A DNA stretch of 57,295 nt. Origin: an uncultured Anaerolineaceae bacterium (GTDB lineage: Bacteria; Chloroflexota; Anaerolineae; Anaerolineales; E44-bin32). The stretch is from positions 1 to 57,295 of the forward strand of contig CAYZXF010000335.1 of NCBI GenBank assembly GCA_964482355.1. The letters run 5' to 3'. A program made the position numbers and the translations under genes. Within the stretch, counting starts at the first letter, position 1; each line of letters opens with the position of its first letter. Under the pieces are notes generated by a model that was not told the DNA's origin, made no database searches, and saw nothing but the letters and a program-made list of their open reading frames with translations. Shown here piece by piece: positions 7,798-57,295 of this stretch.

Positions 7798-8076
7798 TTA
7801 TGCCAACTGGATCATCGTAACGTCGCCATTGGCGGCCACTACCGTCACGAGACACAGATCCATCGACGCAAGATCATCAATGACAATGACGGTATCGTTG
7901 AGTTGTAGACCCTTATCGCCTCCATCGTCAATGTAACCGGCAGCGATGATCGTAGCCACAGCATCGGCCGCAGAACGATACGACCACAGAGCTGTAGTCG
8001 CGCCGGCATCAGCAGAATCCTCGCCCGTACCGAGGCGCGGAATCATGACAACTAGATTTTTAGTCAAATATGCCAT
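7798..8076 (-). CDS. Hypothetical small protein downstream of the capsid gene
   Basis: 92-aa ORF lying 11 nt after the capsid stop. A head-associated role is only a positional guess. Confidence 0.55.
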   Translation of the reverse strand: MAYLTKNLVVMIPRLGTGEDSADAGATTALWSYRSAADAVATIIAAGYIDDGGDKGLQLNDTVIVIDDLASMDLCLVTVVAANGDVTMIQLA

Positions 8077-8087
8077 CTCAGACCTCC

Positions 8088-8942
8088 TTATACGCCAACC
8101 AGAGAGCTGCCGTCATGGTTGATAACCACGACACCGCTATTCTGGAGCAGTTGTGAGCCCATGTAAATCGAGCAACGCGCCCAGGAATAATCCTGTTCCT
8201 CATCGTAGCCCGCCCGAGCCTCCAGATCGTCCGCGTTATAGGCATGGCCTATCGAGGATTTGTGGAAGCAAAAACATTTCTCTGCATTGGTGCCAACACC
8301 CGGCAGATTCGGATGCACGACCCACATCATGTTCAGCCACATATACGAAATTGGCTTGTCGCGCCAGGCCGGGTCCGCGTAGCGGGTCGGGCCGCCGTCG
8401 ATGTATTCGCGAGAGCCAAATTCCTTGACCTGCATCATGAACGCCTCATAAGCCGGCGTCACCAACATGCAGATGTTTGAATCCCACGGTACTTCAGCAA
8501 CACCGAGAATGGTTTTGGCGCGCAGGGTAAGACCCAGATCCGCCGTCACCGCTGACGTACCGGCCGTGACTGTGGCCGTGTTCAGTTCGGTGATGATGTC
8601 CTGATCGATCTTACGATTGATGACGCCCATGCAGGTCTGCTGCATGATCGCGCGCTGATTGCCTTGCGAAGCGAAGATGTTGAAATCTGTCTTTCGAACC
8701 AGATCGTGCCACTCGACCAGCGTTGCAACCGGCTGGCTGAGGTTATCGCCGCGTGCCGGAATGAGACCGTTTACGCCACGAGTTTTAGCGGTAGCACCGC
8801 CAGAATCAGCTACCAGAAAGGTCGCCTGATTGCCCTTGATGACCGCTTCTGTGGTCACAAAAGAGCGCAACAGGGACTGGAGCTGCTCGAACCCGGCAAT
8901 GAATTCCTGCCGGTATTGAATTTGGAACGCTGTCTCGGCCAC
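8088..8942 (-). CDS. Major capsid protein (by synteny)
   Basis: 284 aa with a GTG start at 8942 preceded by GGGAGA and a 6-nt spacer. It follows the portal-scaffold order. The N-terminus is MAETAFQIQYRQEFIAGFEQLQS.... The family cannot be named without a search. Confidence 0.7.
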   Translation of the reverse strand: MAETAFQIQYRQEFIAGFEQLQSLLRSFVTTEAVIKGNQATFLVADSGGATAKTRGVNGLIPARGDNLSQPVATLVEWHDLVRKTDFNIFASQGNQRAIMQQTCMGVINRKIDQDIITELNTATVTAGTSAVTADLGLTLRAKTILGVAEVPWDSNICMLVTPAYEAFMMQVKEFGSREYIDGGPTRYADPAWRDKPISYMWLNMMWVVHPNLPGVGTNAEKCFCFHKSSIGHAYNADDLEARAGYDEEQDYSWARCSIYMGSQLLQNSGVVVINHDGSSLVGV

Positions 8943-9394: not shown

Positions 9395-9410
9395 AACGAT
9401 TCCGTATTAG

Positions 9411-9429
9411 GGGGTGACATTGTCACCCC
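9411..9429. repeat. 19-bp perfect palindrome GGGGTGACATTGTCACCCC, copy 1
   Basis: Read directly. It overlaps the scaffold-gene stop codon (9423-9425). The same 21-mer GGGGGTGACATTGTCACCCCT occurs at 34191-34211 and, reverse-complemented, at 19790-19810. Confidence 0.9.
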
Positions 9430-10370
9430 TGAGCGACTTTGTGGGTTGCCTCGTGCTGGGTGCGAATCTCATACAGCTCGCGCAAGCGCTTCTGCATGGG
9501 CTCGTCCTTGTTGTACTCGCTGCGCTTGTCACGCATGAACTTCTCGATTTTTGCGATCTCATCGTTGAGCGTTTGCGCCGGATCGCCGGTGGGTGCGGTG
9601 AGCTGCGCTACCGGGTTGAGTTTCCTCGAGATTTCCGCAAGACCCGCCACGATGCCTGGATTGTTCATGATGCCTCGGCCTTCACCATCGCGGGCGTTCA
9701 AAAACGCTTCTTTGCTCTCCGCGTTAAAGGTCGATTCGATCAGGGCGCCGACAAGATTGGTGTTGGCGCGGTAATCCGAGCCCCAGGTCTCGCGCAGCGT
9801 ATCCTCATACTCCTGCTTGTGCGCCGCATCGGTCTCGGCAATATTGTCCTGCTGTTCTTCGGCAAAATTGTTGTACCAGTTGATGACCTCGTGGGCCACT
9901 TCGGGCTTGACGTTGTGTTTGTGCAGTGAGCCCATGAAGTCGGCCATGATCTCCTTGTCACCCTCACCAACGACCATGCCCTCGGGCATATTGTCAAAAT
10001 AACCGGACGATTCCAGCGGCACACCGTTTGCCTCACGATAAGCCTTGACGTCGTCATCGGTGGCATTGTCTGGCAACGGCTTCAGGTAATTGCCGGCCGA
10101 AATGGTAGTGCGTTGCTCACGAAATGCGTTACCGACATCAGCCAGCGTGGAATAACGCTCCAGCGTAGACTTGAACTTGTCGTCATCGCCGGCCAGGCCT
10201 TCGCGAAAGTCAAAATTCAAGGCCTCATTGCCCTTGTCGACAGACTCGAAAAAGGCATCTGCGGATTCAAATTTTCCAAGCTGCTCGGCGCGATCGGTGT
10301 TATCGCCAGCCAGCCCGCCGTACCATTGTTCGTCTTCAGCCATCTTGTTCTCCAGCGGTGCGTACCGCAA
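9423..10370 (-). CDS. Scaffolding protein (by position and composition)
   Basis: 315 aa, acidic and predicted helical, located between the portal and capsid genes. Confidence 0.6.
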   Translation of the reverse strand: MRYAPLENKMAEDEQWYGGLAGDNTDRAEQLGKFESADAFFESVDKGNEALNFDFREGLAGDDDKFKSTLERYSTLADVGNAFREQRTTISAGNYLKPLPDNATDDDVKAYREANGVPLESSGYFDNMPEGMVVGEGDKEIMADFMGSLHKHNVKPEVAHEVINWYNNFAEEQQDNIAETDAAHKQEYEDTLRETWGSDYRANTNLVGALIESTFNAESKEAFLNARDGEGRGIMNNPGIVAGLAEISRKLNPVAQLTAPTGDPAQTLNDEIAKIEKFMRDKRSEYNKDEPMQKRLRELYEIRTQHEATHKVAQG

Positions 10371-10659
10371 TTTTATCAGGATCCGTCCGTGCCTCTGCTG
10401 ACTTTAGCATCCAAATCAAAGTCGTTCCGGCATGACGCCGGCCTTCTGCGAAATCGCTGCTGCGGGCACTGCCCGGGCGAAACGAGGTGTCGTGAGTACC
10501 AAACGCCCAGATCATCCAGTCCAGCGCTCGCCTTTGCTGAGCAGCGCTCGCCTCTCCTCGGTACAAGGCGCGGATCGCTTGCACATCCGCCTCATGATAA
10601 TCCGGTCGCTTCAGCGGGTCTGGATTCGGTACTAACGGATCGTCTGATGGTCTTAACAT
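10336..10659 (-). CDS. Small conserved head-module protein
   Basis: 107 aa. Its ATG overlaps the portal TGA by 1 nt. The motif EADVQAIRALYRGEASAAQQRRALDWMIWAFG...FAEGRRHAG resembles small proteins found between portal and scaffold in BPP-1-like podoviruses. This is from memory and is not verified. Confidence 0.5.
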   Translation of the reverse strand: MLRPSDDPLVPNPDPLKRPDYHEADVQAIRALYRGEASAAQQRRALDWMIWAFGTHDTSFRPGSARSSDFAEGRRHAGTTLIWMLKSAEARTDPDKIAVRTAGEQDG

Positions 10660-12281
10660 CAGGCTGCATCGGCCGCGGCCAGGTCCTTGATGCCGGCACC
10701 GCCCGTTTTAGCCAACTCTGCCATGGCTTGGGCTTCTTGGGCTTCTTTGAGTTCTGCCATGGCGGCCTCCACATCGGCGTCACTATTGAGGCGTTCTTCT
10801 TTAAGGCCGATACCTTGCAGCGCATCGCGCAAGGTCATGCCAACGTCCAGATAGGCAATGGTTGAGGGATCGAGCTGCATCGCACGTTCAATCAAATCCG
10901 CCGATTCTAAGAAAATGGAGGCGTCCTTGCGCTCAATAAGATCGTGCAATGGCGATACAAATTTGAAGTGGATATTACGTCCCTGCAGTTCGCGCGGGAT
11001 ATCCTGAATCGCTCCAAAGTGGCCAGCGCGCAGCAGCGCATCAAAAGTATCTTCACAAAGCTGGCCGTTGTACTCGGTCTCCATGGGCTCGAACAAGGGC
11101 AGTGCGGCGCGGATGTACTCCTGCACGCGCTGACCGACTTCAAACGCCGTCATTTCGGTACCTTTTTCTGGCGCTGGTAAGGTCAGTCTATTGATGTAAA
11201 AGGCTTCGGCGAGCATTTGCATTTGCGTGTCGTGCACGTTGTATCCAATCGGCAAGCCCCTGCGGTCCTGATTGATCGGCCGCAGCACGTCACCCTTGCG
11301 CTCATCGTAGTCCTGGTCTGCCCAGGTCACACCGCCAGAATAGAGCTGCAGATCGCCGCGCACCGCGTCAATAGTGGCAATCATCGGCGGACGCACGCTC
11401 ATCTCACCGGCTTCGAGCAAGGTGAGACTCATCGCCTGCAGAAGACGCGCATCGGGAAGACCGGCAATGGTGGCCGGCGAATAGGCGTATTGGCTTCCCG
11501 AAACCGTCTGCCAGCGCGGCAGAGTGATGCCGTGCGAGAACAGGCCCATTTCTTTCATGATGTGTTTATTGAGCACATCCAGATACACCAGCATCCACGG
11601 ATAGCCTTCGCCCTCGCCATTCTGGCCGCGGTAGATATCGGTCGACACCGCCAGCCGCATGCACTGGTGCGTTTGCAGCGTCTCGGTGCCGGTTTTATTC
11701 GCAATGAGCGTGTGCAGGTCCATGCCCATCTCTTGCAGGACCTTGATGCTCGGCTTCCACTTCAGATAAATTTCACCGACAGAGCCATCCGCCATCTCGG
11801 CCCAGGCGACATCGCGCAAATGCCAGCAGCGGTACAACAGGTGCGGCGAGCGCGCATTCCAGTTAGTTTCGCGTGTAATGCAGCACTGCCCGAAGGCGGC
11901 GTAATCCGCGTCTCCCTCGGAGGTGGCACGAATAAAATACGCTTTGCGGTCATACATCGCAGCCCGCTGGCGCTTGGTCGCCCATTGCAGCCATTCGATG
12001 CCGCCCTTGGACACTTTGTCCATTTCATCCACCTCAGTCTCGAACCAGTCCGAGCTCCTCGGTCTGAGCATGGCCGCAAAGGAGGTTGATAAATCTCGGT
12101 GTACCAGCAGCGGATAGGATGAATACAAGTGATTGGCGAATTCCTCACCAATGTAGCGCGTCAGGGTGAAATCCGCGCGCTGCGGATAGAAGTTCTCGGC
12201 AATTTCCTGCCACAAGGTGGTGGCCGCTTTGCGCTGGGCAAATAATTGGCCGCCCCGCTCAATGAGTTCGTCTGGCTTCAT
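10659..12281 (-). CDS. Portal (head-tail connector) protein
   Basis: 540 aa downstream of terL. The N-terminus ...TLWQEIAENFYPQRADFT... together with size and position fits podovirus (T7 gp8-type) connectors. Confidence 0.8.
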   Translation of the reverse strand: MKPDELIERGGQLFAQRKAATTLWQEIAENFYPQRADFTLTRYIGEEFANHLYSSYPLLVHRDLSTSFAAMLRPRSSDWFETEVDEMDKVSKGGIEWLQWATKRQRAAMYDRKAYFIRATSEGDADYAAFGQCCITRETNWNARSPHLLYRCWHLRDVAWAEMADGSVGEIYLKWKPSIKVLQEMGMDLHTLIANKTGTETLQTHQCMRLAVSTDIYRGQNGEGEGYPWMLVYLDVLNKHIMKEMGLFSHGITLPRWQTVSGSQYAYSPATIAGLPDARLLQAMSLTLLEAGEMSVRPPMIATIDAVRGDLQLYSGGVTWADQDYDERKGDVLRPINQDRRGLPIGYNVHDTQMQMLAEAFYINRLTLPAPEKGTEMTAFEVGQRVQEYIRAALPLFEPMETEYNGQLCEDTFDALLRAGHFGAIQDIPRELQGRNIHFKFVSPLHDLIERKDASIFLESADLIERAMQLDPSTIAYLDVGMTLRDALQGIGLKEERLNSDADVEAAMAELKEAQEAQAMAELAKTGGAGIKDLAAADAA

Positions 12282-12520
12282 CCCAGCGTGTCCTGATCGG
12301 TGAGCTGGGTGCTGGCGCGTGATCCACGACGTTTAGCCGCTTTGCGCCGCTCGTTACGGCGTACCTCCTCCTCATCGGGAATGAGTGCATTGGCGTACAC
12401 AGAATCCAGTGCCGCTTGCTTTTTGTCCGCTTTTTCCTTGCGCCGCTCAGCATTGGTCTTGAAGCCACGACCAAGATGAATATTCACGAGTCGCTTACGG
12501 GTATTTGTAAGGCCTGACAT
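12278..12520 (-). CDS. Small basic protein between terL and portal
   Basis: 80 aa, Lys/Arg-rich. It has a TAATG overlap with terL and an ATGA overlap with the portal gene. Confidence 0.5.
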   Translation of the reverse strand: MSGLTNTRKRLVNIHLGRGFKTNAERRKEKADKKQAALDSVYANALIPDEEEVRRNERRKAAKRRGSRASTQLTDQDTLG

Positions 12521-14154
12521 TATTGTCTCCTCCTTGGTCCCAAATTGACCTGTGGCATGCGCTTACCCATCGATCGCGGAATCTTACCAACACGCTGGTC
12601 CGGGCGCCATTCATTCAAGTGCGTGATTGCCTTCGGCCCCGCCGACCAACTCATGACGACAGCATCACCTTTATCCGTTGATCGCCCAAGTGCGGCAACC
12701 ACGTCTTTTTTCGGCGTCACCTTAATACCATTGGGGGTGACCTCCCAACGCAAGGCCGTCAGATCGGATACCAGCTCGGGATCGTCTGGTAAAGCGATCG
12801 GCGAGCCGCCGTCCTGTCCAGGGTCCAGTGCTTCACGAAAGCCCCAGCAAATTTGCGCGCGCTTGTTGACGAATTTGAGCTGTTTTTCAGCCGTTCTGCG
12901 CACCGATTTATCCATGCCCAGATGCGCGCGTACTTCAATACCGTTTTCTTTCAAGTGCGCATAAGCCTGTGCACCATTGGTCTCACCGCAATCGAGAATG
13001 ATCACCGAGTCATTCCTGCGGTGCTTCATGACCAAAGCTGCAACATCCGAGCCGTGCGGCGTTTCTAACCCAGGCACTGCGATCAGAACAGCAAACCAGC
13101 CGTCGTGACGCGGCGCTAATACCGTTTTGTCCTTTCTGCGCGCGGCGTCCACGCCGATGGCACATTGCGGCACACCATAAGGAGGGTCGGCTTTCCATCT
13201 GGCTTGAGCACGCCGGATCCACTCGGTCGGAATAAGCTGGTCGGCTTCGTCCACTCGAGCCACCATGAAATTGCCATCGCGAATGGCCGAGCGAAATGGC
13301 TCCGGCATCGCATCAAGCACTGCGTCATAGCCGGTATCGGCCAAAAACGGGTTATCGCCCAGATGTGCCGGGATGAAGGTGCGGCTCATCGGTTTCAGGA
13401 ACCGCGGCGTGCCATCATCGTTCATTTTGCCGCTGGGAATCTCCACATCAGGACCGTCTACCCAATGATCCTTGGAATTACCCGCCTCATCGACAAAGGT
13501 CACACACCAGCGCAGCTCGCCGTGTTTGGCCGGGCGTGGATAGCGATCATCCAACCACGGCGCGAACATCGGGATGATCCAGTCACCCCCTGAGTCTGTG
13601 GGCGGATTAGAGCCTAAAATAACTCTTTTGCGCTGATCCGGGTCGGTTGAGCGCACCCAACCCATGAGAAAGCGAATTTGCATCTCCAGGCACTGCACCA
13701 CTTCGTCAATGGCCAGTAAATCGTGTGGATTGCCCTGCCAGTGCTTCTCATCGCCGAGTTTTGCCAACCCGCCAAAATCAATGGTCTTGCCATTCACCGT
13801 TTTCAGGCGCGGCGGCGGCGAGCCGTTATAGCCCTTGTCGGTGCCGTTTATTGCGATGGCACGATCGGTTAATGGGGTCAAATCGACGTAATGCTTGCGA
13901 ATAATGAGCGAGCGGGTGTGATATTCAAAGGCCATACCGAGAATCAGGTCGGTTTTACCACCCCCGCCCTCACCGCCGTAGAGCAACACGTCCGCCAGGC
14001 AGTTCACCGCGTCGAGCTGCGGGCCCACGGTCGGAAACCACATGCGATTTTTGGACTGGTCATCGATGAAGGCATCGAGCTCGGCGCGCTTGTCAGGACT
14101 CAGCGCGCCGTATTTTTCCATCAGGTCATCGATTAACGCGGATTCACGGCTCAC
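12520..14154 (-). CDS. terL: Terminase large subunit
   Basis: 544 aa. Walker A is LLYGGEGGGGKTDL and Walker B is HDLLAIDEV. The C-terminal nuclease-like segment contains AIGVDAARRKDKTVL. The start is GTG at 14154. Confidence 0.9.
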   Translation of the reverse strand: MSRESALIDDLMEKYGALSPDKRAELDAFIDDQSKNRMWFPTVGPQLDAVNCLADVLLYGGEGGGGKTDLILGMAFEYHTRSLIIRKHYVDLTPLTDRAIAINGTDKGYNGSPPPRLKTVNGKTIDFGGLAKLGDEKHWQGNPHDLLAIDEVVQCLEMQIRFLMGWVRSTDPDQRKRVILGSNPPTDSGGDWIIPMFAPWLDDRYPRPAKHGELRWCVTFVDEAGNSKDHWVDGPDVEIPSGKMNDDGTPRFLKPMSRTFIPAHLGDNPFLADTGYDAVLDAMPEPFRSAIRDGNFMVARVDEADQLIPTEWIRRAQARWKADPPYGVPQCAIGVDAARRKDKTVLAPRHDGWFAVLIAVPGLETPHGSDVAALVMKHRRNDSVIILDCGETNGAQAYAHLKENGIEVRAHLGMDKSVRRTAEKQLKFVNKRAQICWGFREALDPGQDGGSPIALPDDPELVSDLTALRWEVTPNGIKVTPKKDVVAALGRSTDKGDAVVMSWSAGPKAITHLNEWRPDQRVGKIPRSMGKRMPQVNLGPRRRQ

Positions 14155-19735: not shown

Positions 19736-19790
19736 GTAACCGCGCCAAGTGGCTGGCCCTGGCCGGCTGTTTGGCGGGAGTTATTCCCAA

Positions 19791-19809
19791 GGGGTGACAA
19801 TGTCACCCC
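19791..19809. repeat. 19-bp perfect palindrome GGGGTGACAATGTCACCCC, copy 2 (inverted orientation)
   Basis: Read directly. It is intergenic and lies 22 nt upstream of the ATG at 19832, which has an AGGAG SD. Confidence 0.9.
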
Positions 19810-19831
19810 CCTACAACGCGAGGAGATAGAA

Positions 19832-21414: not shown

Positions 21415-21942
21415 TCAAATTCCATGTGTGCTGCTAAAACCAAGCCTTATCTCCGCTGACCTACGGCGGCAACAAGCTTCAAAAAAGTCCTTGCCAGCAT
21501 ATAGATAATACCTCTTACCCTGAGAATCTATCGTGGACTGCCATCTTTGTCGAGTTTTCTGCCAATAAACTCCCGTGATGCCGTATGTATTATCGGACCT
21601 CTTGCCTCTGTTCTTACAATTGTCTGAGCGAGTCGCTGGACGTAAGTTTTTCAGTCTATTATCCAGTGAATTACGATTGATGTGGTCAATCTCGTCAACC
21701 AAGACACCATGCACGATCAGCCAAATAATCCGTGCCACGTTATAAACTTTACCATTGATTTTAACGCGGCGAGAAACGTACCCTTGCTTCGTCCTTACTG
21801 TTGATCCAGCTATAGATCCGACCTTGTATTTACTATTACAAGCCGGAGACCGCCTGATTAGATTCTCTCCATCGTACTCAAAGCGCTCGATAGCAACCGC
21901 AAGATTCAGCATTTTTATCAATCCAAAACATCCTGATATCAC
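21415..21942 (-). CDS. HNH homing-type endonuclease
   Basis: VDEIDHINRNSLDNRLKNLRPATRSDN (an HNH motif) is followed by an AP2-like GITGVYWQKTRQRWQSTI. The start is uncertain. Confidence 0.7.
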   Translation of the reverse strand: MISGCFGLIKMLNLAVAIERFEYDGENLIRRSPACNSKYKVGSIAGSTVRTKQGYVSRRVKINGKVYNVARIIWLIVHGVLVDEIDHINRNSLDNRLKNLRPATRSDNCKNRGKRSDNTYGITGVYWQKTRQRWQSTIDSQGKRYYLYAGKDFFEACCRRRSAEIRLGFSSTHGI

Positions 21943-23562: not shown

Positions 23563-23785
23563 TGTCGAATTTCCTCAGCATGTTTCGAATAATATCCTTG
23601 GCCGTTGTGTACTCCTGCCACTCCCGTACTTGGACGCCTAAACTCTCGTCCGCGTCATACATGGCGTCGCGGCAAAACGGCGTCCAATCTCCTGTACGTG
23701 ACTTGCAAATGACCAGCAATATGGCCATGCGATCAGCTAGAAACGCTACTCTTGCGGCGTTCAGACTTTTCTCGTCCTTTGGCAT
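23498..23785 (-). CDS. Hypothetical protein
   Basis: 95-aa ORF that overlaps both neighbours. The start is uncertain. Confidence 0.4.
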   Translation of the reverse strand: MPKDEKSLNAARVAFLADRMAILLVICKSRTGDWTPFCRDAMYDADESLGVQVREWQEYTTAKDIIRNMLRKFDNEHINLQERQQGKVAGNDQGG

Positions 23786-25283
23786 ACGCTATATTCCTCG
23801 ACGTTATCCAGTTAAGTACCCTCTTGTCAGGCGGCACAGAGACCATGTTCATCCAGTGCCGCTCTGGCCAGCAGCCACACTTTTCTTTGAATTTCACGGC
23901 CGCCCAGCCGGGCTTGTAGTTGTGCTCGGCGCCGTAGCGCTTCAACATGCAGAAGAGAATCTCGTGCGACACCCATCCCTTTGGCAGCTTCTCCACCAAC
24001 GCTTTGCCGATGCGCACCAGATCAGCTTGAGTGGTGGCGACGTCGCGTTTTGTAAACGGCACCTTCCAGCCACATTCCGGGCATACCCTGGAGCGGCTGA
24101 AAATATAATGGCACTCCTCGCACTCGTGCTGTTTGGCCTCCTCAGCCTCTCCGGATTCTTCGTTGCGCGTCCAGTTCTCGCAGGCCTTCTTGCCCGGATC
24201 TAGGCGCCAACGAAACAGGTCATCTGCCTGCCCAAGTGCTGGCACGTTGCCGGCGTGATCTAGGACCATGGTGGCACCACCATCGATATTCGGACGCATA
24301 CCTCGGCCAAGGGATTGATGATGGAAAACGATGCTTTTGGTCGGCCTAGCTAAGACCACACAATTGATACTTGGAGCATTGTACCCGTAACTCGCGATTC
24401 CAACGTTTACAAGCACTTGAATTATCTGGGATTTGAACTGTTCGTTAAGCTGATCTCGATCGCTATCATCAAGGTGAACGTGCAATGCACCGGCACTAAT
24501 TCCAACCTGCTTAAACCGATCGGCGAGCAGCTCACAATGAGCAATATCAACAGCAAACACTATCGTATGGCAATCAGAGGCCAACCGCAGCCAGTTGTCG
24601 ACGACATCTCCCACTAATTTCACACAGCGATTTGACAGTTTTTTTACCTCATAATCGCCGCGCCGAATCTTAATCCCCTCCATGTCTGGTGTAGCACCCC
24701 CCCAGTATTCCATTTTGCAAAGATGTCCATCTTTGACAAGCCTTCTTATGGTTGTGATGTGCTTTAGAGTCGACCAGAATGTTCCAAGACCCTTACCAGT
24801 CAGTCTGGCTGGCGTTGCTGTATAGCCATCGATAGCAGCCTTGGGTGCATAGTGTTCAAGTATTTCCAGAATCTTAGGGGCGGTTGACAAATGGCACTCA
24901 TCGGTCAACAGACGGTCCACCTTTGGAAACCAAAAGTCAGAGCGCCGAGCACGTGAAATCAGTGTAGGCCACGACACAATATGAATTGGGGATACCGGAT
25001 TCCATCGCTCACCCTCCCTTTTTGCCCTGAGCATGGTGACGTTTTCTGCACCACAAACCTCACTTACAATATTATGAGTCTGACCAAATATCTCATTACG
25101 CGGAGTCAAAATCGCCGTCGAATTGCCGCGCTCCATTTCACGCTTTGCGGTAAATGCCTGCATCAAACTTTTGCCTGATCCGCACGGGGCTATGTGTATT
25201 GGCCGCAATTCTTTACCATGATTCAAAGCATAATTAACGGACTCCTCTTGGTAATCTCGAAGAACGAATGTCATACGTGACAC
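23733..25283 (-). CDS. SF2 (DEAD/DEAH-like) DNA helicase with a C-terminal zinc finger
   Basis: 516 aa. Motif I is APCGSGKS and motif II is LLTDECH. Helicase C motifs are present (QSLGRGMR). It also has CEECHYIFSRSRVCPECG. Confidence 0.8.
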   Translation of the reverse strand: MSRMTFVLRDYQEESVNYALNHGKELRPIHIAPCGSGKSLMQAFTAKREMERGNSTAILTPRNEIFGQTHNIVSEVCGAENVTMLRAKREGERWNPVSPIHIVSWPTLISRARRSDFWFPKVDRLLTDECHLSTAPKILEILEHYAPKAAIDGYTATPARLTGKGLGTFWSTLKHITTIRRLVKDGHLCKMEYWGGATPDMEGIKIRRGDYEVKKLSNRCVKLVGDVVDNWLRLASDCHTIVFAVDIAHCELLADRFKQVGISAGALHVHLDDSDRDQLNEQFKSQIIQVLVNVGIASYGYNAPSINCVVLARPTKSIVFHHQSLGRGMRPNIDGGATMVLDHAGNVPALGQADDLFRWRLDPGKKACENWTRNEESGEAEEAKQHECEECHYIFSRSRVCPECGWKVPFTKRDVATTQADLVRIGKALVEKLPKGWVSHEILFCMLKRYGAEHNYKPGWAAVKFKEKCGCWPERHWMNMVSVPPDKRVLNWITSRNIAYAKGREKSERRKSSVSS

Positions 25284-25759
25284 CAGCTTTTTTTCGCACG
25301 CACCTTGTAGATTGTCCGGCGGGTAACGCCATATTGTTTGGCTAAGATTCTTGGAGCTTTTGTGCTTTGTCTTATTTCCAATACCCCTGCTTCGGTCAAT
25401 TTGGCCTGCGGCTTCTGACTTCCTACCTTATGTAACATTGCCGTGTTATCTCGCCCTCGTTCTATGCAATCCGCCCTATTTGTTTTCGCACTGCCTGCGT
25501 AAAGGTGATCGGGATTAATACAGTCTGTGACATCACAATGGTGGCAAATGTGCACCCCGTCTGGAATTGCGCCATGAGCAATATGATAAGAAACCCTATG
25601 TGCTAAGTATCTCTTATTGTTGATTGTTAGCAGCCCGTAGCCTTGGCGATGCTTCCAGCCCCTCCATCTCCAACACCCAGCAGCGTCTACCACATAGCCA
25701 TTCAGAATCCTTTTCTTAATGGATTCAGTGATCTGGTACTGGCGTTCCTCAATCTCCAC
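25271..25759 (-). CDS. HNH homing-type endonuclease with a C-terminal HTH
   Basis: 162 aa. LAHRVSYHIAHGAIPDGVHICHHCDVTDCINPDHL is an HNH_3-type motif. AKLTEAGVLEIRQS...LAKQYGVTRRTIYKV is an HTH. The gene overlaps the helicase start by 13 nt. Confidence 0.75.
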   Translation of the reverse strand: MEIEERQYQITESIKKRILNGYVVDAAGCWRWRGWKHRQGYGLLTINNKRYLAHRVSYHIAHGAIPDGVHICHHCDVTDCINPDHLYAGSAKTNRADCIERGRDNTAMLHKVGSQKPQAKLTEAGVLEIRQSTKAPRILAKQYGVTRRTIYKVRAKKSWCHV

Positions 25760-28764: not shown

Positions 28765-29303
28765 TACGCTCCCTTCACCAGCGGCGATTGTTCTCTGCAT
28801 CCCCACGGCTCCAGCTTTTCGCATTGTCCAGGTGAACAGGAGCACCAGTTTACCCTTGCACTAAGCATGGTCTGCAGAGCCTTGAGTGCTTCATCATGGC
28901 TGCCCATCTGTAACATTTCGAATACGCCCTTAACCTCGGGCAATATTTCATCATTGATCGATGGCTGGTAAACAATAGCCCCGGGCCTAACATCCAAGTC
29001 GCCAACTGCAACCGCTTCGAGCTGTACAGGAGGCGGATTCGGCACCACCTTGACGTAGTTCTCAAACTCGAACGCATCGACAATGCTCATGCGGCCATCG
29101 CCATGTTTGACAAGCCACGCAAGATCAGGAATCGGCAGCTCCTCGCCGTTAATCGTGATCCAATTTTGGCCATCAATGGTGAGAAACGCTCGACTGTCCA
29201 GCCACTCAGGCCATAGCTTTTCCTGATAGCGAGATGACTCGGTGATCTGATAACCCTCGATCGTTTCATCACCAATGGTGTAGCGAAAATCTTGGTCAGC
29301 CAT
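28764..29303 (-). CDS. Hypothetical protein
   Basis: The track ORF is 28764-29396. I prefer the ATG at 29303 (MADQDFRYTIGDE...), just inside the ParB-like gene's 3' end. Confidence 0.5.
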   Translation of the reverse strand: MADQDFRYTIGDETIEGYQITESSRYQEKLWPEWLDSRAFLTIDGQNWITINGEELPIPDLAWLVKHGDGRMSIVDAFEFENYVKVVPNPPPVQLEAVAVGDLDVRPGAIVYQPSINDEILPEVKGVFEMLQMGSHDEALKALQTMLSARVNWCSCSPGQCEKLEPWGCREQSPLVKGA

Positions 29304-30027
29304 CGAAATCCCTTTTCGTTTGTTCAAGTGATGGAGTACGGTATGCGATGACCGCGTGCGCTGCCCATGTGGACACATACTCCAAATCCGCGACATCCGC
29401 TTGAGTCAGGTCCAGCCTGAGCGCATCGCCACCCGGATACGGGAAAGCCTTATACAGTGCGTTCGCCTGCCGGAGCTCATCGCGTTCGGTCTCCGCTTGT
29501 GTCGGCTCCGGCTTGGCCGCGCGATTATCGTCCGGGCTTGGCTCCTGAGTAGAGTTGGGGGGTGAATCGTTCACCCCTGGTTCTGCCGCTGCCGCCTGGT
29601 TCGCGATTCGTTGCACCGTGCGCTTGGTAACACAGCAAATATCGGCTTGCTCCTGACGGCTCATTTGGGATATCTGCGGGTCCTTCAGGGCGATCTCAAC
29701 GGCGTTTCGCTTGTCAGCGCTAGTGCGACGCAGGCCGTGCTCGCTGTTCCCACCAAGCGCGTGTATGAGCGCCTCGTGCATGCCGCCTTCGTGGACTTCG
29801 CACTCTATTTCGTCCCGCTCAGCATGGACCGCGGCATAAAGACGGTGAAAACCGCGTGAGAGAATCGTTCTCGAGGAGTCCTTCTCACGAAACACATCGA
29901 TCGGCGGCATAATGGCGCCCGCCTTGATGTCCTCGCAATACTCGTCAATGATGTCCTTGTGCAGCCGGGTGCGAACCTGGGTTTTATCTGATGCCTCTAT
30001 GGAATCGCATTTAAGAAACGTCGCCAC
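29296..30027 (-). CDS. ParB N-terminal-domain protein with an HTH
   Basis: 243 aa. MPPIDVFREKDSSRTILSRGFHRLYAAVHAERDEIECEV is a ParB/Srx-like box. ICCVTKRTVQRIANQ is an HTH. Confidence 0.75.
   Translation of the reverse strand: MATFLKCDSIEASDKTQVRTRLHKDIIDEYCEDIKAGAIMPPIDVFREKDSSRTILSRGFHRLYAAVHAERDEIECEVHEGGMHEALIHALGGNSEHGLRRTSADKRNAVEIALKDPQISQMSRQEQADICCVTKRTVQRIANQAAAAEPGVNDSPPNSTQEPSPDDNRAAKPEPTQAETERDELRQANALYKAFPYPGGDALRLDLTQADVADLEYVSTWAAHAVIAYRTPSLEQTKRDFDG
29559..29577. repeat. Palindrome GGGGTGAA-TCG-TTCACCCC (variant, inside the ParB-like CDS)
   Basis: Read directly. It has the same outer GGGGTGA.../...TCACCCC arms as the 19-mer and encodes GVNDSPP. Confidence 0.35.
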
Positions 30028-30316: not shown

Positions 30317-30573
30317 GTCGGATCCCTGTTCAGTAGTTCGTCCTCGGCCGCGGATAGGAAGTCACGGTTTTTCGACTCCAGCACCCTGACCTCCTCGACG
30401 GTCATAGCCTTGCCGTCGTCATGAAATCGGTACTTTGGCAACGGCACCGGGTCTATCTTTTCAACGCGCCAGCGCAAATAGCCCGATGGAATGTCCGTGA
30501 TGTCCTGGCCTTTGTGCTTACCGAAATGGCATTTCACTTCACTCTCCTCATCAAAATAGGGTTCCCGCGACAC
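30313..30573 (-). CDS. DUF3820-like small protein
   Basis: GTG at 30573 is preceded by AGGAAA. HFGKHKGQDITDIPSGYLRWRVEK matches the FGK.KG..l.diP..YL.W pattern. Confidence 0.55.
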   Translation of the reverse strand: MSREPYFDEESEVKCHFGKHKGQDITDIPSGYLRWRVEKIDPVPLPKYRFHDDGKAMTVEEVRVLESKNRDFLSAAEDELLNRDPT

Positions 30574-31143
30574 TTGGCCGCTTTCCTTTGCAACCTTGTT
30601 GGGCGACTACCTCCAACGACATAATGGTCTTGTGGATGCTCCGGCGCACGATTTGTTCACACCCACTAACGTGGTTGGTTTCACGCACCATCGGGCAAGG
30701 ACTGTTTGTCGTGCTCATTAAATTCTGTATTACAGATATACCTCCGGCCCTTCCCTTGTCGGAACCCAAGGTCAGTTGATGCCTTCTCTTGTCGTGCCTT
30801 ACAGGGACCAAGATCAACGGACGGCCGGTAGGTCCTTCCTTGGATTTGTCTCGGTTTGAGTTCACAAACTGCTTTGAAGTGGCACCGGACCCAAAGCCGC
30901 GAGCTTCGGAACGTATCCGGTTGATTGGCGTATATCCGGATTGCCAACCTTGACCACCATCAAAACAGCCTGTTACACGGTCAGACCTCTCCAAAACACC
31001 GCTGGAACGCGGGAAGGTCTTGCAGATTGCAGACGGATTCATGCTAGAATGCCTGCATCTGGTCTCCAAGCCGAGCGCATTACCAGATACGAGGCCCCTC
31101 CCTATTCGCAACGGAGGGGCTTCATTCATTGAGAGTATCGAAA
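30574..31143 (-). other. Unassigned 0.57-kb segment (open 198-codon frame with atypical codons, or a structured RNA/DNA element)
   Basis: The track ORF 30551-31147 spans it with a GTGA overlap onto the HNH stop. The product is Gly/Arg/Ser-rich with no hydrophobic core and carries many AGG/AGA/ATA codons. Numerous local hairpins are present, for example GCCCCTCC-N11-GGAGGGGC at 31094-31120. Confidence 0.3.
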
Positions 31144-31644
31144 TCACGCCGTCTCCGCAATAGAGGTTCGTTGCTTTTCGCGGAACAGCACCTTTTCTGC
31201 GATCGATTTATTTTCGACCGATAGATTACAAGGAAAACAGGCCATAACTAAATTAAATGGATGATTATTACCGCCCTTGCTGATCTCAAGTAAGTGCTCC
31301 AGCGTCAGGATTATTTCCAGCCCACAGAACCAACATGCCGGTCCATCTCTAGCAATAATGGTCCGCTCAAGAACTGTCTTACCTTTACCTGGGCGCTTGG
31401 TTTTATCGCCATCAAGGCCAGACCACGATTTTCTATTGATATAGCAGTCATACGCCTCGGCAAGGGCATCGTCCCAAGTCAAGTTGCCCCGCTTATTTTT
31501 GTAGAGAACCGATATTTGACCACGAACATTAACGCGCAAAACCTCCCACTCATTCGTAGGTGACAATAGTGCGGCACCGTTCCTCGATAGATATTCCCGG
31601 AACTTTTTTAGGCGCAACTGGCTATTGTGGACAGGTATTGTCAT
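31144..31644 (-). CDS. HNH nuclease translationally coupled to the HerA-like ATPase
   Basis: 166 aa. The HNH core is CWFCG...LEHLLEISKGGNNHPFNLVMACFPCN. It has an ATGA overlap with the ATPase stop. It is visibly AT-richer, with ATA/CTA/AGA codons. Confidence 0.7.
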   Translation of the reverse strand: MTIPVHNSQLRLKKFREYLSRNGAALLSPTNEWEVLRVNVRGQISVLYKNKRGNLTWDDALAEAYDCYINRKSWSGLDGDKTKRPGKGKTVLERTIIARDGPACWFCGLEIILTLEHLLEISKGGNNHPFNLVMACFPCNLSVENKSIAEKVLFREKQRTSIAETA

Positions 31645-33341
31645 TCGAAAAACACCGACGCGGCCTTTATGCCGCCATCACGAGCGTAACCATCTGCGGC
31701 ACCGATCGAGCGCAATCGACTCAGCACATTTCCGAAATGACTACTGGTTCGGCTGTAACCTGAACTCACGCATATATCATCCTCAGTGACGCGCGCGCCG
31801 TTCGCTAAAATCAGTACGTCGAGGATTTTGTTCGCTGCGCCACCTAGCTTCGGCCGCAACCATTCCCGCAACTCAGGGCCGGTCGGTTTTTCTTCGGCAA
31901 CCGGACTCATGACCGCTTCGCCAGCCTCAGTAATTCGCCAACCGCTCACCAGGCCAGCGGTACGCAAGCTGCTAATAACGTTACCAAGATGGCTGCTTTT
32001 CGACGAGTAACCGGCATAAAATGACAGCTTATTTTTCGTCGCTTCCTCATCGCGTAACCACCAGAACGCTCGCAGGATGGCCACCTGAGCCTTGCCTAGA
32101 CTATCAATCTGTGGAGGTGCGGCAGAAGACGCATTATGTCCCACGAGGACACCTACTGGAGGTGCAGAGGGCCGCTCTGGCTGAGCAAGTTTTTTCTGTG
32201 TCACTTTCAGCAACGGCGGCACTGGCACATCAGAGTCAGGATTTATCATTTCCAGCAGTTCATTGACATAATTAAAAGCCGATTTTTGCGCGCACTGCAG
32301 CGAACTCACCCGATCCTCGAGCTGACTCACGTACTCGACTAGCTTCGAAGTATTCTCACGCAAAACCTCTAACTCACCGTTATCTCTGTCATTTTTTGAT
32401 AGCTTGATTTCCTTTTCCAGCACGCGAATACGCTGTTTCAATAGCTTCGGGTCAATCTCTTGAGCGCGTTTGATCGTACCGGCCATCTGCTCACGCAATC
32501 TCGATACGTCGACATCGGCCAGGCGGGCTGTCTTGCTTTTCACTGCCATTTTCGGCGTCGATCCAGAATCGAACGTATTACGGCGGCGGAACTTTACCTG
32601 TTTTGTGCATTTCAGAAACTGCGGCGACCACACCCACGCCTCGCCGTTAGCGAGCCCAGGCAGCGTCTTGAGTATGTCGCGAGACTGGTCGTTGTACTTA
32701 ACCCATTCCTCAATCGCCTTGCGATCTTGAGGTCCTGTAGTTCGCATGGCGATCAGGGTCTGTACTTGCGTCAGCACGTTTTTGTTTATCGATGCACTGC
32801 GCTGAGTGATCATCGTCATTCCAAGACCCCGGGCCCGGCCGCGCCGAACGATATTCTCCCACGCACGCAATAACTGCCCCTCATCACGCATCGGTCGCTG
32901 CGGAATGTAGTCGTCAGCCTCCTCAAGGAATAGATGCAGCGGTTCCTCGTTGCGCTTATATAGACGCCGCGAAAAATCGAGTAAAAACTGTTTCTTTGCC
33001 GCCTCGCTATCGAAGTCTGTCAAATCCAAGATGCACGACAGACGCTCATCGACAACGATATCGGCAATCAGGCGACCACCAGTGCGCTCCAACGGCACAT
33101 CGCCGCGCTTTCCGCCGAACAGCGGTATATCAAGACCTGCACCGGAGCCAGTTTTCGACGATCGCATACCCCACCACGATCCAACCGGATCAACGACAAC
33201 GAATGGCAGCTCACGGGCGAACATTTCTTCAGCCATAACGGTCGCAGAATTCGACTTCCCGGCGCCGCGAGCCGCAAGAATCCCGAAAGTTTCAGTGATC
33301 GCCTCATCTGGTATCGAGAAGCCTTTACCGAGATTTAGCAT
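31641..33341 (-). CDS. HerA/FtsK-type P-loop ATPase with two C-terminal winged-helix-like repeats
   Basis: 566 aa. Walker A is GILAARGAGKSN at residues ~20-31, Walker B is LHLFLEEADDY, and ITQRSASINKNVLTQVQTLIAMRT follows. Two ~70-aa repeats are present (YAGYSSKSSHLGNVISSLRTAGLVSGW and SSGYSRTSSHFGNVLSRLRSIGAADGY). Confidence 0.75.
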   Translation of the reverse strand: MLNLGKGFSIPDEAITETFGILAARGAGKSNSATVMAEEMFARELPFVVVDPVGSWWGMRSSKTGSGAGLDIPLFGGKRGDVPLERTGGRLIADIVVDERLSCILDLTDFDSEAAKKQFLLDFSRRLYKRNEEPLHLFLEEADDYIPQRPMRDEGQLLRAWENIVRRGRARGLGMTMITQRSASINKNVLTQVQTLIAMRTTGPQDRKAIEEWVKYNDQSRDILKTLPGLANGEAWVWSPQFLKCTKQVKFRRRNTFDSGSTPKMAVKSKTARLADVDVSRLREQMAGTIKRAQEIDPKLLKQRIRVLEKEIKLSKNDRDNGELEVLRENTSKLVEYVSQLEDRVSSLQCAQKSAFNYVNELLEMINPDSDVPVPPLLKVTQKKLAQPERPSAPPVGVLVGHNASSAAPPQIDSLGKAQVAILRAFWWLRDEEATKNKLSFYAGYSSKSSHLGNVISSLRTAGLVSGWRITEAGEAVMSPVAEEKPTGPELREWLRPKLGGAANKILDVLILANGARVTEDDICVSSGYSRTSSHFGNVLSRLRSIGAADGYARDGGIKAASVFFE

Positions 33342-33598
33342 CCACGATCCCCTATAGCATCGTCGATTGCTTTGAGCTGCTCATCGCTGATGCCGCCAAG
33401 CTGTGGGTTATGCAGGTTTGCCGACACCATGCGCAGCAGACCTTTCAATACGACTGCATCCTCATATCGCACCCAATCACCGTTGTACTTCTCGGTGATG
33501 GCAATGCGGGCAATGGCTGTATTGCGCTGCGCTGGTGCCACTCCTGTAACGGACTGCTGGCCGCGCGTGATTTCGGAAGTGATGTTGTAGCGCTTCAT
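33335..33598 (-). CDS. Hypothetical protein
   Basis: The track ORF is 33335-33655. The ATG at 33598 forms an ATGA overlap with the upstream stop. Confidence 0.45.
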   Translation of the reverse strand: MKRYNITSEITRGQQSVTGVAPAQRNTAIARIAITEKYNGDWVRYEDAVVLKGLLRMVSANLHNPQLGGISDEQLKAIDDAIGDRGC

Positions 33599-33807
33599 CT
33601 CGGCAGCCTCGGCGGCAGTTGTTTCGGGCAGTGCCGGCAAACTGGAGCTGCCCATAAAAAGAAATATCCGACCGCATCCTTTTCGATCTCAGCCTTGTCG
33701 GGCTCGCCACCAAGATCAACGCGCGCTACCCAGTCGTGCTGACCAAGCAGGCAGGCAACCCATTGCATTGTGGTAGGTTCCTTGCGAGTGACGGCATCCG
33801 GCATCAT
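33595..33807 (-). CDS. Hypothetical protein
   Basis: The track ORF is 33595-33840 (TTG start). I prefer the ATG at 33807. Confidence 0.4.
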   Translation of the reverse strand: MMPDAVTRKEPTTMQWVACLLGQHDWVARVDLGGEPDKAEIEKDAVGYFFLWAAPVCRHCPKQLPPRLPR

Positions 33808-33824: not shown

Positions 33825-33959
33825 TCACTGCAGCAGCCAATAAATGATTAGACCAACCGCCATGAGAACGAATGGCAGGTCAAAAAACCAGAATTTAATT
33901 GGATTTTCTTCAAATTCATCGATCAGGCGCCGAAATACGCCGCGTTTTTGTTTGGTCAT
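33825..33959 (-). CDS. Candidate 44-aa membrane protein
   Basis: Below the track cutoff. It has an ATGA overlap with the RHH stop. Translation: MTKQKRGVFRRLIDEFEENPIKFWFFDLPFVLMAVGLIIYWLLQ (C-terminal TM segment). Confidence 0.35.
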   Translation of the reverse strand: MTKQKRGVFRRLIDEFEENPIKFWFFDLPFVLMAVGLIIYWLLQ

Positions 33960-34108
33960 ACAGGAATCCCCTTCTTTTCCGCCTGACGATGGATGTGATT
34001 CAACACATAGTTGGCAGCACTGATGCCTTCCTGATTCGCCAGCTTATGTAAGGCTTCACGCTCAAGCTCTTTCAAGCGCATTTGAAACTTCTTGTCTTTT
34101 CTGTCCAT
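33956..34108 (-). CDS. Ribbon-helix-helix (Arc/CopG-like) regulator
   Basis: ATG at 34108 lies within track ORF 33956-34222. MDRKDKKFQMRLKELEREALHKLANQEGISAANYVLNHIHRQ shows a beta-strand followed by two helices. No SD is visible, so the mRNA may be leaderless. Confidence 0.55.
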   Translation of the reverse strand: MDRKDKKFQMRLKELEREALHKLANQEGISAANYVLNHIHRQAEKKGIPV

Positions 34109-34191
34109 ACACGGTAATGTACACACAAACGGCATGACATGCAACATGCACACGCGAGGAAAAAAAATGACGCCGAATAAGCCAATTGAGG

Positions 34192-34210
34192 GGGGTGACA
34201 TTGTCACCCC
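34192..34210. repeat. 19-bp perfect palindrome GGGGTGACATTGTCACCCC, copy 3
   Basis: Read directly. It lies in the divergent region between the RHH gene and the recombination operon, ending 14 nt before the ATG at 34225 and 1 nt before its AGAGGA SD. Confidence 0.9.
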
Positions 34211-34224
34211 TAGAGGAACCAACC

Positions 34225-56854: not shown

Positions 56855-57295
56855 CTATGCTCCGGCAGCGTCGGCATCGACCAGATAGAAATGTAACTTA
56901 ACGTCAACTCTTGTTCCATTTGCCTCTGCTTTTGCTCTAAACCAAATATCTGTTAATGCTTTAATCTTGATGTGAGACTTAAATTCTTCATCGTGAACAC
57001 CCTCGACACCAAAGGCATTCCAGAGAATTCTGCGTGGGTCCATGGGTGCTGATGTGTCTAAAATCCCTTCTCGTTCATACAATATGATATCAACCGTCTT
57101 ATTAGTTCCGATCTGAACATTGACAGTCAGGTGCGATATATACATTACCTTGCCAAGTGGAACAGTCCAAAACCCATTGCTTGCTTCACCTAAACCGTAT
57201 TGCACTGAAACATCAACACTCCCCTCCTCACCTACCATTTTAGAAAGCAAAGCACCATTGGCGAAAGTGGCATTGGTTACTCTACATTCTATATC
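56855..57295 (-). CDS. 3' part of the wrapping ~403-aa virion-module gene
   Basis: Track ORF 56855-57250 is the C-terminal portion. The frame is open upstream to the window end and joins 1-912 through the overlap. Confidence 0.65.
   Translation of the reverse strand, partial: DIECRVTNATFANGALLSKMVGEEGSVDVSVQYGLGEASNGFWTVPLGKVMYISHLTVNVQIGTNKTVDIILYEREGILDTSAPMDPRRILWNAFGVEGVHDEEFKSHIKIKALTDIWFRAKAEANGTRVDVKLHFYLVDADAAGA
57155..57295. repeat. Terminal overlap, copy 2 (identical to 1-141)
   Basis: See copy 1. Confidence 0.95.

Follow-up and report, generated by a model that had tools for sequence, protein, structure and literature searches.

The window considered here, a stretch of 57,295 nucleotides from an uncultured Anaerolineaceae bacterium (contig CAYZXF010000335.1), represents a complete, circularly assembled, podovirus-like phage genome. 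Its early operon, called rightward, holds a pair of genes that are both located on the minus strand, as are all their features described below. The first encodes an ATPase of 566 amino acids of the HerA clade with a C-terminal tandem winged helix (31641..33341), identified by its open reading frame (ORF), the Pfam families DUF87 and HerA_C, an AlphaFold2 (AF2) model and Foldseek. The second encodes a free-standing HNH endonuclease of 166 amino acids (31144..31644; Pfam HNH and HNH_5, PHROG 7785). The stop codon of the ATPase gene and the start codon of the HNH gene overlap in the sequence ATGA (31641..31644), and the HNH stop codon overlaps in turn (GTGA) with the start of a further formal ORF, both overlaps being read directly in the sequence as originally described. 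In the original prediction, the two proteins were taken as a possible translocase/nuclease module.

The ATPase core (residues 1–262, 32556..33341) is supported by invariant alignment columns and by the alignment to solved HerA, and all elements of a RecA-like motor are present in it. Walker A (AARGAGKS, residues 23–30, 33252-33275), Walker B (HLFLEEADD, residues 136–144, 32910-32936) and an arginine-rich motif (VRRGRARGLG, 32820-32849) can be read from the translation, the latter corresponding to the arginine finger motif, and they are followed by the (S/T)QR(P/S)...MR block. The residues R25, G26, G28, K29, H136, E141, D143, R166, R167, R169, R171, Q180 and R181, among others, are invariant in an alignment of 39 sequences. 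VRRGRARGLG aligns with the REGRKFG motif of solved HerA (9x1l, 8xau) and ITQRSA...LIAMRT with the SQRPS...IIMR motif, and the earlier assignment of Walker B and of the ITQRSA...LIAMRT block to the HerA/FtsK class is confirmed. Since Walker A occupies residues 23–30, with the lysine as residue 29, a HAS barrel could not be accommodated at the N-terminus, as had been noticed before. The AF2 model opens directly with the core strands E2-5, E8-10 and E18-22, and the alignments to solved HerA begin only at chain residues ~170-420 of HerA.

By single-sequence search the best solved relative of the ATPase is HerA 9x1l (E 8e-13), which also leads the profile search against the PDB (E 2.8e-18), and the top Foldseek matches are HerA 4d2i (E 2.8e-13, probability 1.00) and 9x1m (E ~3e-13). 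HerA is thereby the best match in sequence as well as in fold, sharing Walker A and B, the REGRKFG-like arginine motif, (S/T)QR(P/S) and the MR(L/T)xxPxD motif. However, the matches to solved HerA are restricted to the RecA-like core. The ATPase lacks the HAS barrel as well as the usual HerA C-terminal helical bundle, is not accompanied by NurA, Sir2 or a DUF4297 protein, adds a coiled-coil stalk and two winged helices, and has its gene in replication/recombination modules of phages and plasmids. The scores against Pfam DUF87 and HerA_C are both above cut-off (HerA_C 23.4 bits vs. 22, over only ~80 residues), whereas the score against the NCBIfam HerA equivalog NF040819 (63.7 bits) is far below the cut-off of 970, and the anti-phage HerA models of NCBIfam reach 45 bits against cut-offs of 800–850. 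Profile search also gave a weak match to solved YjgR (11kk, E 6e-5). This likeness to the YjgR/DUF853 (HerA_C) proteins extends over ~80 residues, but the overall architecture differs and the context of the ATPase is a mobile element. FtsK_SpoIIIE of Pfam does not match the ATPase at E<=0.1. Together, these results support the assignment as a HerA/FtsK-superfamily motor without HAS barrel to which two winged-helix modules are fused. No known family of replication initiators or packaging proteins accommodates the ATPase, a point which the original prediction had singled out for checking.

A core of this size invites a comparison with genome-packaging ATPases. The P-loop region, and only this region, matches PHROG 2666 (labelled 'terminase large subunit') with an E of 4e-17, and the fold resembles STIV2 B204 and PRD1-type packaging NTPases (target-normalised TM-score 0.76, with a range of 0.73-0.78 for B204), with PH1 and corticovirus ATPases among the matches in BFVD. 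The minimal viral packaging NTPases (STIV2 B204, PRD1 P9-like, A32-like) are barrel-less as well and have ATPase cores of comparable size. However, they act at the capsid vertices of membrane-containing viruses and have neither stalk nor winged-helix domains, whereas the phage in the window is a tailed phage, in which a canonical large terminase (TerL, 12520-14154), a head-tail adaptor/portal (the region with TerL spanning 10659-14154) and tail genes are encoded. The ATPase, on the contrary, lies in the early operon, has relatives on plasmids and contains no nuclease domain. A packaging function, to which we assign next to no probability, is effectively refuted by the canonical TerL elsewhere in the genome.

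The AF2 model of the full-length ATPase has a mean pLDDT of 86 and consists of four parts, the core (1–262), a stalk (279–366), a disordered linker (368–405) and the C-terminal domains (410–566). Judged by its AF2 secondary structure, the stalk (32244..32507) is long, helical and coiled-coil-like, with the helices H279-296, H298-317 and H323-366. The linker has a pLDDT below 50 across residues 368–405 and, when pairwise identity is considered as well, can be drawn as a hypervariable segment of residues 367–409 (32115..32243). Neither a transmembrane-like N-terminal segment nor a membrane anchor is visible in the model.

The last ~157 amino acids are formed by two tandem repeats. The alignment of the two halves by BLASTP (37% identity over 54 amino acids, E 9e-11) substantiates the duplication that had been proposed, although the units measure ~80 rather than ~70 amino acids. 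Modeled alone, the C-terminal pair reaches a pLDDT of 92.5 and shows two helix-helix-helix-hairpin units. Winged helix 1 (residues 410–486, 31884..32114) was defined by this model and by MarR-type Pfam matches in homologues, winged helix 2 (residues 487–566, 31644..31883) by the internal repeat. Their putative recognition helices are GYSSKSSHLGNVISSLRTAGLV (31947-32012) and GYSRTSSHFGNVLSRLRSIGAA (31695-31760), respectively. Pfam does not match the C-terminus of the ATPase in the window itself; among 32 homologous C-termini, MarR_2 matches ten, and others match HTH_Crp_2, IclR, TrmB or HrcA. Furthermore, the family profile matches the MarR-type regulator HosA (E 8.5e-4), and single domains superimpose on MarR regulators with 2.1–2.6 Å over 71–74 residues. 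By profile and predicted fold, the pair can be classed as MarR-like winged-helix domains with a putative DNA-binding function.

Foldseek with the two-domain query returned weak, generic winged-helix matches only (E >0.05), and Ftsk_gamma of Pfam was absent from the 32 C-termini. Since the fold search is only generic, no specific link to the winged-helix domains of FtsK gamma, TraB, Rep or Orc can be claimed. The profile and structure searches that had been proposed thus connect the core to HerA and the C-terminus to MarR-like folds in a general sense, and nothing specific to FtsK gamma or TraB emerged. In FtsK and Streptomyces TraB a flexible linker connects the motor to a winged helix at the C-terminus, which reads the DNA sequence. 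Both belong to the same superfamily of ring-shaped DNA pumps and recognize KOPS (through the gamma domain) and clt/TRS, respectively, but the analogy is one of architecture only: here, the motor is of the HerA clade, each chain carries two winged helices instead of one, and a membrane domain is missing.

The third helix of each winged helix in the ATPase of the window is represented by GYSxxSSHxGNVxSxLR. Throughout the family this segment is nearly the same in repeats 1 and 2 of one protein and widely different between proteins, other members carrying variants such as STRNAYLQRLQ, GGAWNNPRGALR or SGGYFNNLGALR. The identity of the recognition-helix segment is 0.69 within a protein vs. 0.35 between proteins, a difference that was reached in 0 of 10000 permutations, whereas within one protein the identity between the N-terminal parts of both repeats is only 0.35. 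The same pattern is found on DNA level, where 47 of 101 ATPase genes contain, at the 3′-end and in frame, a direct repeat with a length of at least 20 nt, an identity of at least 85% and a spacing of 252–273 nt (for example 52 nt at 96% or 66 nt at 89%). Near-identical DNA for the recognition helices is present in the loci L001 (21460-21503 / 21724-21767), L007, L022, L018 and L059, over 30–66 nt, with 89–100% identity and a spacing of ~258–267 nt. Since these stretches lie amid diverged surroundings, recent intragenic gene conversion is indicated.

Judged from these alignments, the putative recognition helices are the centre of concerted evolution. Most simply interpreted, both winged-helix domains would have to read the same short direct-repeat sequence, with a specificity that varies by element. 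The proposal that the modules are sequence-reading gains from this, since the helices are alike within and different between proteins; the comparison to FtsK gamma and TraB, which had accompanied it, holds only as the architectural analogy described above.

The family to which the ATPase belongs is large. A word-index search gave 2005 matches, of which the best 120 are nearly all full length with 43–72% identity, and an exhaustive profile search with a limit of E<=1e-30 yielded 6226 clusters at 50% identity. Architecture is almost constant among the 150 best matches, which mostly have 530–620 amino acids. Members occur in viral contigs of IMG/VR as well as in genomes of Planctomycetota, Acidobacteriota, Actinomycetota, Chloroflexota, Leptospira and others, and full-length members of ~35% identity are located on plasmids of Mycobacterium, Clavibacter, Tsukamurella and Gordonia. 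In their sources they are labelled only 'DUF87 domain-containing' or 'helicase HerA-like', apart from one 'predicted transcriptional regulator', and literature searches on the family retrieved no describing paper. At the DNA level the region gave no match in cultured phages, the protein-level phage search led to a single metagenomic phage, and the conserved 5′ part of the gene has no match in E. coli genomes. This is a large and widespread HerA-type family of mobile elements, so far unstudied.

Conservation within the family is highly uneven. The mean pairwise identity of 39 members is 0.70 for the core, 0.31 for the stalk, 0.17 for the linker and 0.33 for the winged-helix pair. The first ~313 residues are ~85% identical among three phages which otherwise have no detectable DNA or protein similarity in this region, and between the phage in the window and its relatives of 67%, 59% and 48% identity only the ATPase gene itself is conserved.

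The HNH protein matches Pfam HNH (PF01844) with 23.0 bits at a cut-off of 21.4 and PHROG 7785 ('HNH endonuclease') with an E of 2e-17, and 16 HNH families of PHROG match in total. Its motif CxxC...EH...NNH...N...CxxCN (~31207-31335) reads CWFCG...LEHLLEISKGGNNHPFNLVMACFPCN in the translation, so the active-site motif is intact. The N-terminal ~90 amino acids match only PHROGs of unknown function, and a match to IscB of NCBIfam is confined to the HNH motif. In composition the gene deviates from its surroundings, with a GC content of 0.468 vs. 0.535 for the ATPase gene and 72 ATA, CTA, AGA, AGG and TTA codons per 1000 vs. 27 in ten large phage genes (2.7-fold), which agrees with the foreign codon usage noticed earlier.

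The distribution of the HNH gene is sporadic. In a jackhmmer survey seeded with the HNH protein, an HNH gene adjoins the ATPase gene in one of 110 loci, which is the window itself. The same survey gave one weak match 54 bp downstream in L036 and HNH ORFs at a distance of 1.7–9 kb in 12 loci. The close relatives of the ATPase in L118 (67% identity), L119 and L120 (59%) and the phage MW202482 (48%) are followed by unrelated small ORFs and not by an HNH gene. Furthermore, only three homologues of the HNH protein were retrieved among 5.8 billion proteins (54–58% identity). The upstream gene could be read for two of them (L128, L130), and both lie behind a phage gene for DNA polymerase I (PolA) with the same ATGA overlap, the two PolA genes being 79% identical to each other.

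A dedicated translocase-nuclease machine like HerA-NurA, Sir2-HerA or DUF4297-HerA, in which the ring feeds DNA to the HNH protein for origin processing, host-DNA degradation or counter-defence, has to be measured against this distribution. The ATGA overlap implies co-transcription and coupled translation, solved HerA relatives act together with nuclease or effector partners according to their PDB titles, and the active site of the HNH protein is intact. However, the closest ATPase relatives lack the HNH gene, the composition of the latter is foreign, and its own relatives are attached to PolA. In HerA-NurA the docking of the partner is mediated by the HAS barrel, which is absent here. In addition, a Pfam tally of 93 immediately downstream ORFs revealed no recurring nuclease family, nor a conserved NurA, Sir2 or DUF4297-type partner. 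One HNH_3 and one HNH/HNH_5 protein are found in this set, belonging to different subfamilies, next to SNF2 helicases, DnaB, a DnaA_C-like protein, ParB, DUF5131 and many ORFs without match. A conserved small partner on either side was rejected as well, since the largest phmmer cluster of upstream or downstream neighbours from ~100 loci comprised two members. With a single adjacent case among 110 loci, the translocase-nuclease machine is largely refuted by distribution and has become very improbable. The survey of co-occurrence, which had itself been proposed, returned an HNH gene that occurs independently of the ATPase, the outcome named in advance as speaking against the module.

Free-standing HNH homing endonucleases of phages, for instance the T4 mob genes and other intergenic HNH ORFs of this kind, are small ORFs that lie directly behind a conserved gene of DNA metabolism. 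The HNH gene of the window resembles them in its position, its sporadic distribution, its deviant composition and the occurrence of its relatives at another conserved gene, PolA, homing itself being putative here. Since it is found in one of 110 loci, is absent in near relatives, has PolA-linked homologues and deviates in GC content and codon usage, the HNH gene is judged to be a mobile, free-standing insertion of homing type and not a partner of the ATPase. As such an insertion it is ordinary.

The ATPase gene has been reached by other mobile elements, too. The family member P0224 (966 amino acids) contains ~350 amino acids with LAGLIDADG/Hom_end between the GAGK and the SN of Walker A, which represents an intein inserted exactly after the P-loop lysine and marks the ATPase gene as a recurrent target of homing elements. 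With an HNH_5 gene in the window, HNH_3 and HNH genes at other loci and the LAGLIDADG intein, the family genes show that the ATPase gene is, like PolA, a conserved landing site for homing elements.

Two more free-standing HNH_3 ORFs are present on the minus strand of the window. The ORF at 25271-25759 (GC 0.475) overlaps the start of an SNF2-type helicase gene (23733-25283), and the ORF at 21415-21942 (GC 0.44) adjoins the gene of a RecA-dependent nuclease. Both are low in GC and rich in rare codons like the HNH gene behind the ATPase, and the window therefore carries at least three genes for homing-type endonucleases.

Taken together, the locus probably consists of two unrelated genetic elements lying end to end, a HerA-type motor with winged-helix readers and a homing-type HNH gene. 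For the motor, a general model in which a HerA-type ring is docked by its winged helices and acts on DNA early in replication or recombination appears somewhat more credible than its negation. With Walker A, Walker B and the arginine motifs intact, the ATPase would form an ATP-driven oligomeric ring on DNA, as suggested by homology to HerA. The coiled-coil stalk, the flexible linker and the two MarR-like winged helices would take the place of the HAS barrel and the nuclease partner, the recognition helices being kept alike by gene conversion or selection. By means of the winged-helix pair the motor may then dock on a phage-specific DNA site that is present as a direct repeat, and from there the ring would translocate or open the DNA locally as an early step of phage or plasmid replication or recombination. 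The role of the ATPase could be that of an initiator, a loader or a remodeller, and a dedicated phage-encoded partner would not be needed. The HNH gene would have been inserted exactly at the stop codon of this conserved DNA-metabolism gene, where it may borrow transcription and translation of the ATPase gene via the ATGA overlap while remaining outside the mechanism of the ATPase.

A more specific proposal is that of an unrecognised class of sequence-addressed HerA-type motors, which thousands of phages, prophages and actinobacterial plasmids would encode. The tandem winged helices of these motors, maintained as identical by gene conversion, would dock the ring on an element-specific direct repeat, so that the ring melts or pumps DNA as an origin-specific initiator-helicase or as a motor for the establishment of the DNA. 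We put this forward as a tentative idea.

The genomic context of the family fits to an early function in DNA metabolism. In a survey of homologous loci with flanks of +/-10 kb, the ATPase gene is always co-directional within modules of DNA metabolism (replication/recombination), and the neighbours differ. They include Erf, YqaJ and SSB, PDDEXK_1 together with AAA_24, and an SNF2 helicase, furthermore DUF5131, methyltransferases, ASCH, DUF4326 and an Acb2/Tad1-like ORF, and at some loci tyrosine or serine integrases farther along. In the window itself an Erf/YqaJ operon, called leftward, is present.

Some of these contexts suggest a replication initiator or initiator-helicase that binds iterons by its winged helices, melts or unwinds the origin by its ring and recruits host proteins. 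In the window and in L118 the ATPase gene is the first large gene following a cro-like regulator, which corresponds to the lambda O/P slot. A scan of the window for a polymerase, a primase and a DnaB-type helicase detected none, in agreement with the original prediction; another initiator is not detectable in the window either, and none of these proteins is annotated in MW202482. Lambdoid O proteins combine a conserved part with a fast-evolving DNA reader, and the conserved motor with its fast-evolving reader matches this pattern. In L124 the ATPase gene directly precedes a gene for a DnaA_C-like protein, with DnaB two genes on, and inteins in the P-loop, as in P0224, are typical of essential replication proteins. 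On the contrary, full replication sets coexist with the ATPase in L122 and L124, a search of the gene and its immediate surroundings in four phages revealed neither iterons nor AT-rich repeats, and the family is also present on large actinobacterial plasmids, which should have replication systems of their own. An origin-binding initiator is thus possible, although we would not expect it.

ParB-like proteins are the commonest functionally annotated same-strand neighbours of the family. In 24 of 115 loci, proteins with ParB_N and HTH_ParB are encoded within 10 kb, without exception on the strand of the ATPase gene and in several cases immediately beside it. In the window, a ParB-like gene (29296-30027, minus strand; weak Pfam ParB_N, PHROG 1033 with E 3e-9) lies 1.1 kb downstream of the HNH gene and ~1.6 kb from the stop codon of the ATPase gene. 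The ATPase could hence be a motor for segregation, positioning or transfer that cooperates with ParB-like proteins, as an analogue of FtsK/KOPS or TraB/clt. This would be in line with the layout of motor, linker and winged-helix reader and with full-length members on plasmids of Mycobacterium, Clavibacter and Tsukamurella. Both plasmids examined carry the family gene close to an FtsK/SpoIIIE gene, but as these plasmids thereby encode a separate FtsK/SpoIIIE protein, this proximity also argues in the other direction. Moreover, about 80% of the loci have no ParB nearby, many carriers are integrating temperate phages with integrases for which partition is not needed, and the ATPase shows neither a membrane anchor nor a match to Ftsk_gamma-type families or folds. 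We regard a segregation or transfer motor as rather unlikely.

On the two plasmids, L131 (Clavibacter sepedonicus pCSL1) and L132 (M. intracellulare plasmid), a cytosine methyltransferase and DUF4326 are also encoded nearby. An apparent fusion of ParB and ATPase in L027 (8258-13041) was rejected as an artefact, since the frame is merely open through GC-rich sequence. The ATPase gene of L027 shifts frame twice within ~60 nt and continues into a long extension at the C-terminus, and the fusion is probably an assembly error.

Methyltransferases, the Acb2/Tad1-like ORF, ASCH and DUF4326 are typical of early conflict genes, and the HerA models of PADLOC match the core with E values down to 1.6e-20. 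The ATPase could accordingly serve in counter-defence, as a decoy or poison subunit for host HerA immunity, or it could be an ATP-dependent transcription factor with the winged-helix pair at promoters, to which the label 'predicted transcriptional regulator' of one member would fit. However, the PADLOC matches are limited to the shared RecA-like core (residues ~120–250), the HAS barrel that mixed rings with host HerA would need is missing, the motor is extremely conserved across phyla, which speaks against an arms-race protein, and the genes are located in replication/recombination modules and not in anti-defence islands. A counter-defence or regulatory protein is accordingly very unlikely.

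Several points weigh against a winged-helix-docked motor and against its separation from the HNH protein. Ring formation, DNA translocation and DNA binding by the winged-helix pair are all inferred from sequence and models. The coexistence of the ATPase with complete replication sets in L122 (Prim-Pol helicase in the same phage, PolA preceding the ATPase) and L124 (DnaB and DnaA_C-like protein) means that the ATPase is not a universal replicative helicase or initiator. Repeat families of at least three copies were absent in and near the ATPase gene in the window, L118 and L119, and L001 has only weak three-copy families of 14–22 nt that are not iteron-like. In these four phages, the search for iterons or an origin in and beside the gene returned only the coding repeats of the two winged helices; short, degenerate or distant sites elsewhere in the genome would be missed by this search. 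No k-mers (k>=9) were both repeated in and common to four loci with similar recognition helices. In addition, homogenisation of tandem repeats can be partly neutral, and the HNH protein could have been secondarily co-opted in this one phage.

Nevertheless, a sequence-addressed HerA-type motor is plausible and better supported than before, and the ATPase family represents a known kind of machine in a large and as yet uncharacterised variant. If this holds true, a very common phage and plasmid gene with more than 6,000 clusters, labelled only 'DUF87/HerA-like', would gain a testable function, that of a ring motor complete in itself, the address of which can be taken from the sequence of its two co-evolving winged helices. 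It would add a HerA-fold member to the sequence-directed motors FtsK/KOPS and TraB/clt or, as an initiator, stand on the HerA/FtsK fold, in contrast to the AAA+, SF3 or DnaB folds of known initiators. This might explain how replication or recombination is started in phages without a recognisable initiator such as the phage in the window. The concerted evolution of the two readers would further be a clean natural experiment in specificity switching. The overlapping stop and start codons with the HNH gene, on the other hand, are not to be taken as functional coupling.

Concerning the remaining layout of the locus, an ORF of 106 amino acids lies upstream of the ATPase gene (33335..33655, minus strand) and shares 7 nt (ATGCTAA) with its start. 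Pfam and PHROG scans gave no family match for it, and it is not conserved upstream of ATPase homologues. The ORF of 41 amino acids at 33956-34081, previously called an RHH regulator, has no PHROG match, and none is listed in the precomputed Pfam record. At the ends of the window an exact direct repeat of 141 nt is present (1-141 = 57155-57295), from which it follows that the window is circularly closed or represents a terminally redundant genome of ~57,154 bp.

Behind the HNH gene an odd segment of 0.57 kb is located, which can be read as a formal GTG ORF of 198 amino acids (30551..31147, minus strand). The residues R, S, G, P and C account for 42% of this ORF vs. 25–29% in neighbouring ORFs, and the segment has neither a Pfam or PHROG match nor a similar sequence in any of the loci retrieved. 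As minus-strand RNA it folds with a z-score of -3.1 and contains a strong GC hairpin at ~31091-31123. The segment is probably not an ordinary protein gene. Rfam gave no match, whether for the complete window or for the 0.57-kb segment, and an interpretation of the HNH gene with this segment as a group I/II intron or HEARO/omega-RNA is therefore unsupported. In L118, ~0.8 kb without called gene (8063-8880) follow two small ORFs past the ATPase; this stretch is unlike the odd segment of the window and could be a non-coding element such as an origin.

Finally, a perfect palindrome of ~21-23 bp, (A)GGGGGTGACATTGTCACCCC(T), is found three times in the window (9410-9430, 19790-19812 and 34189-34211), with a degenerate copy at 29558-29578. 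One of the copies precedes the first ATG of the leftward operon by 14 bp, within the divergent early control region, and the palindrome may act as an operator or as a bidirectional hairpin.

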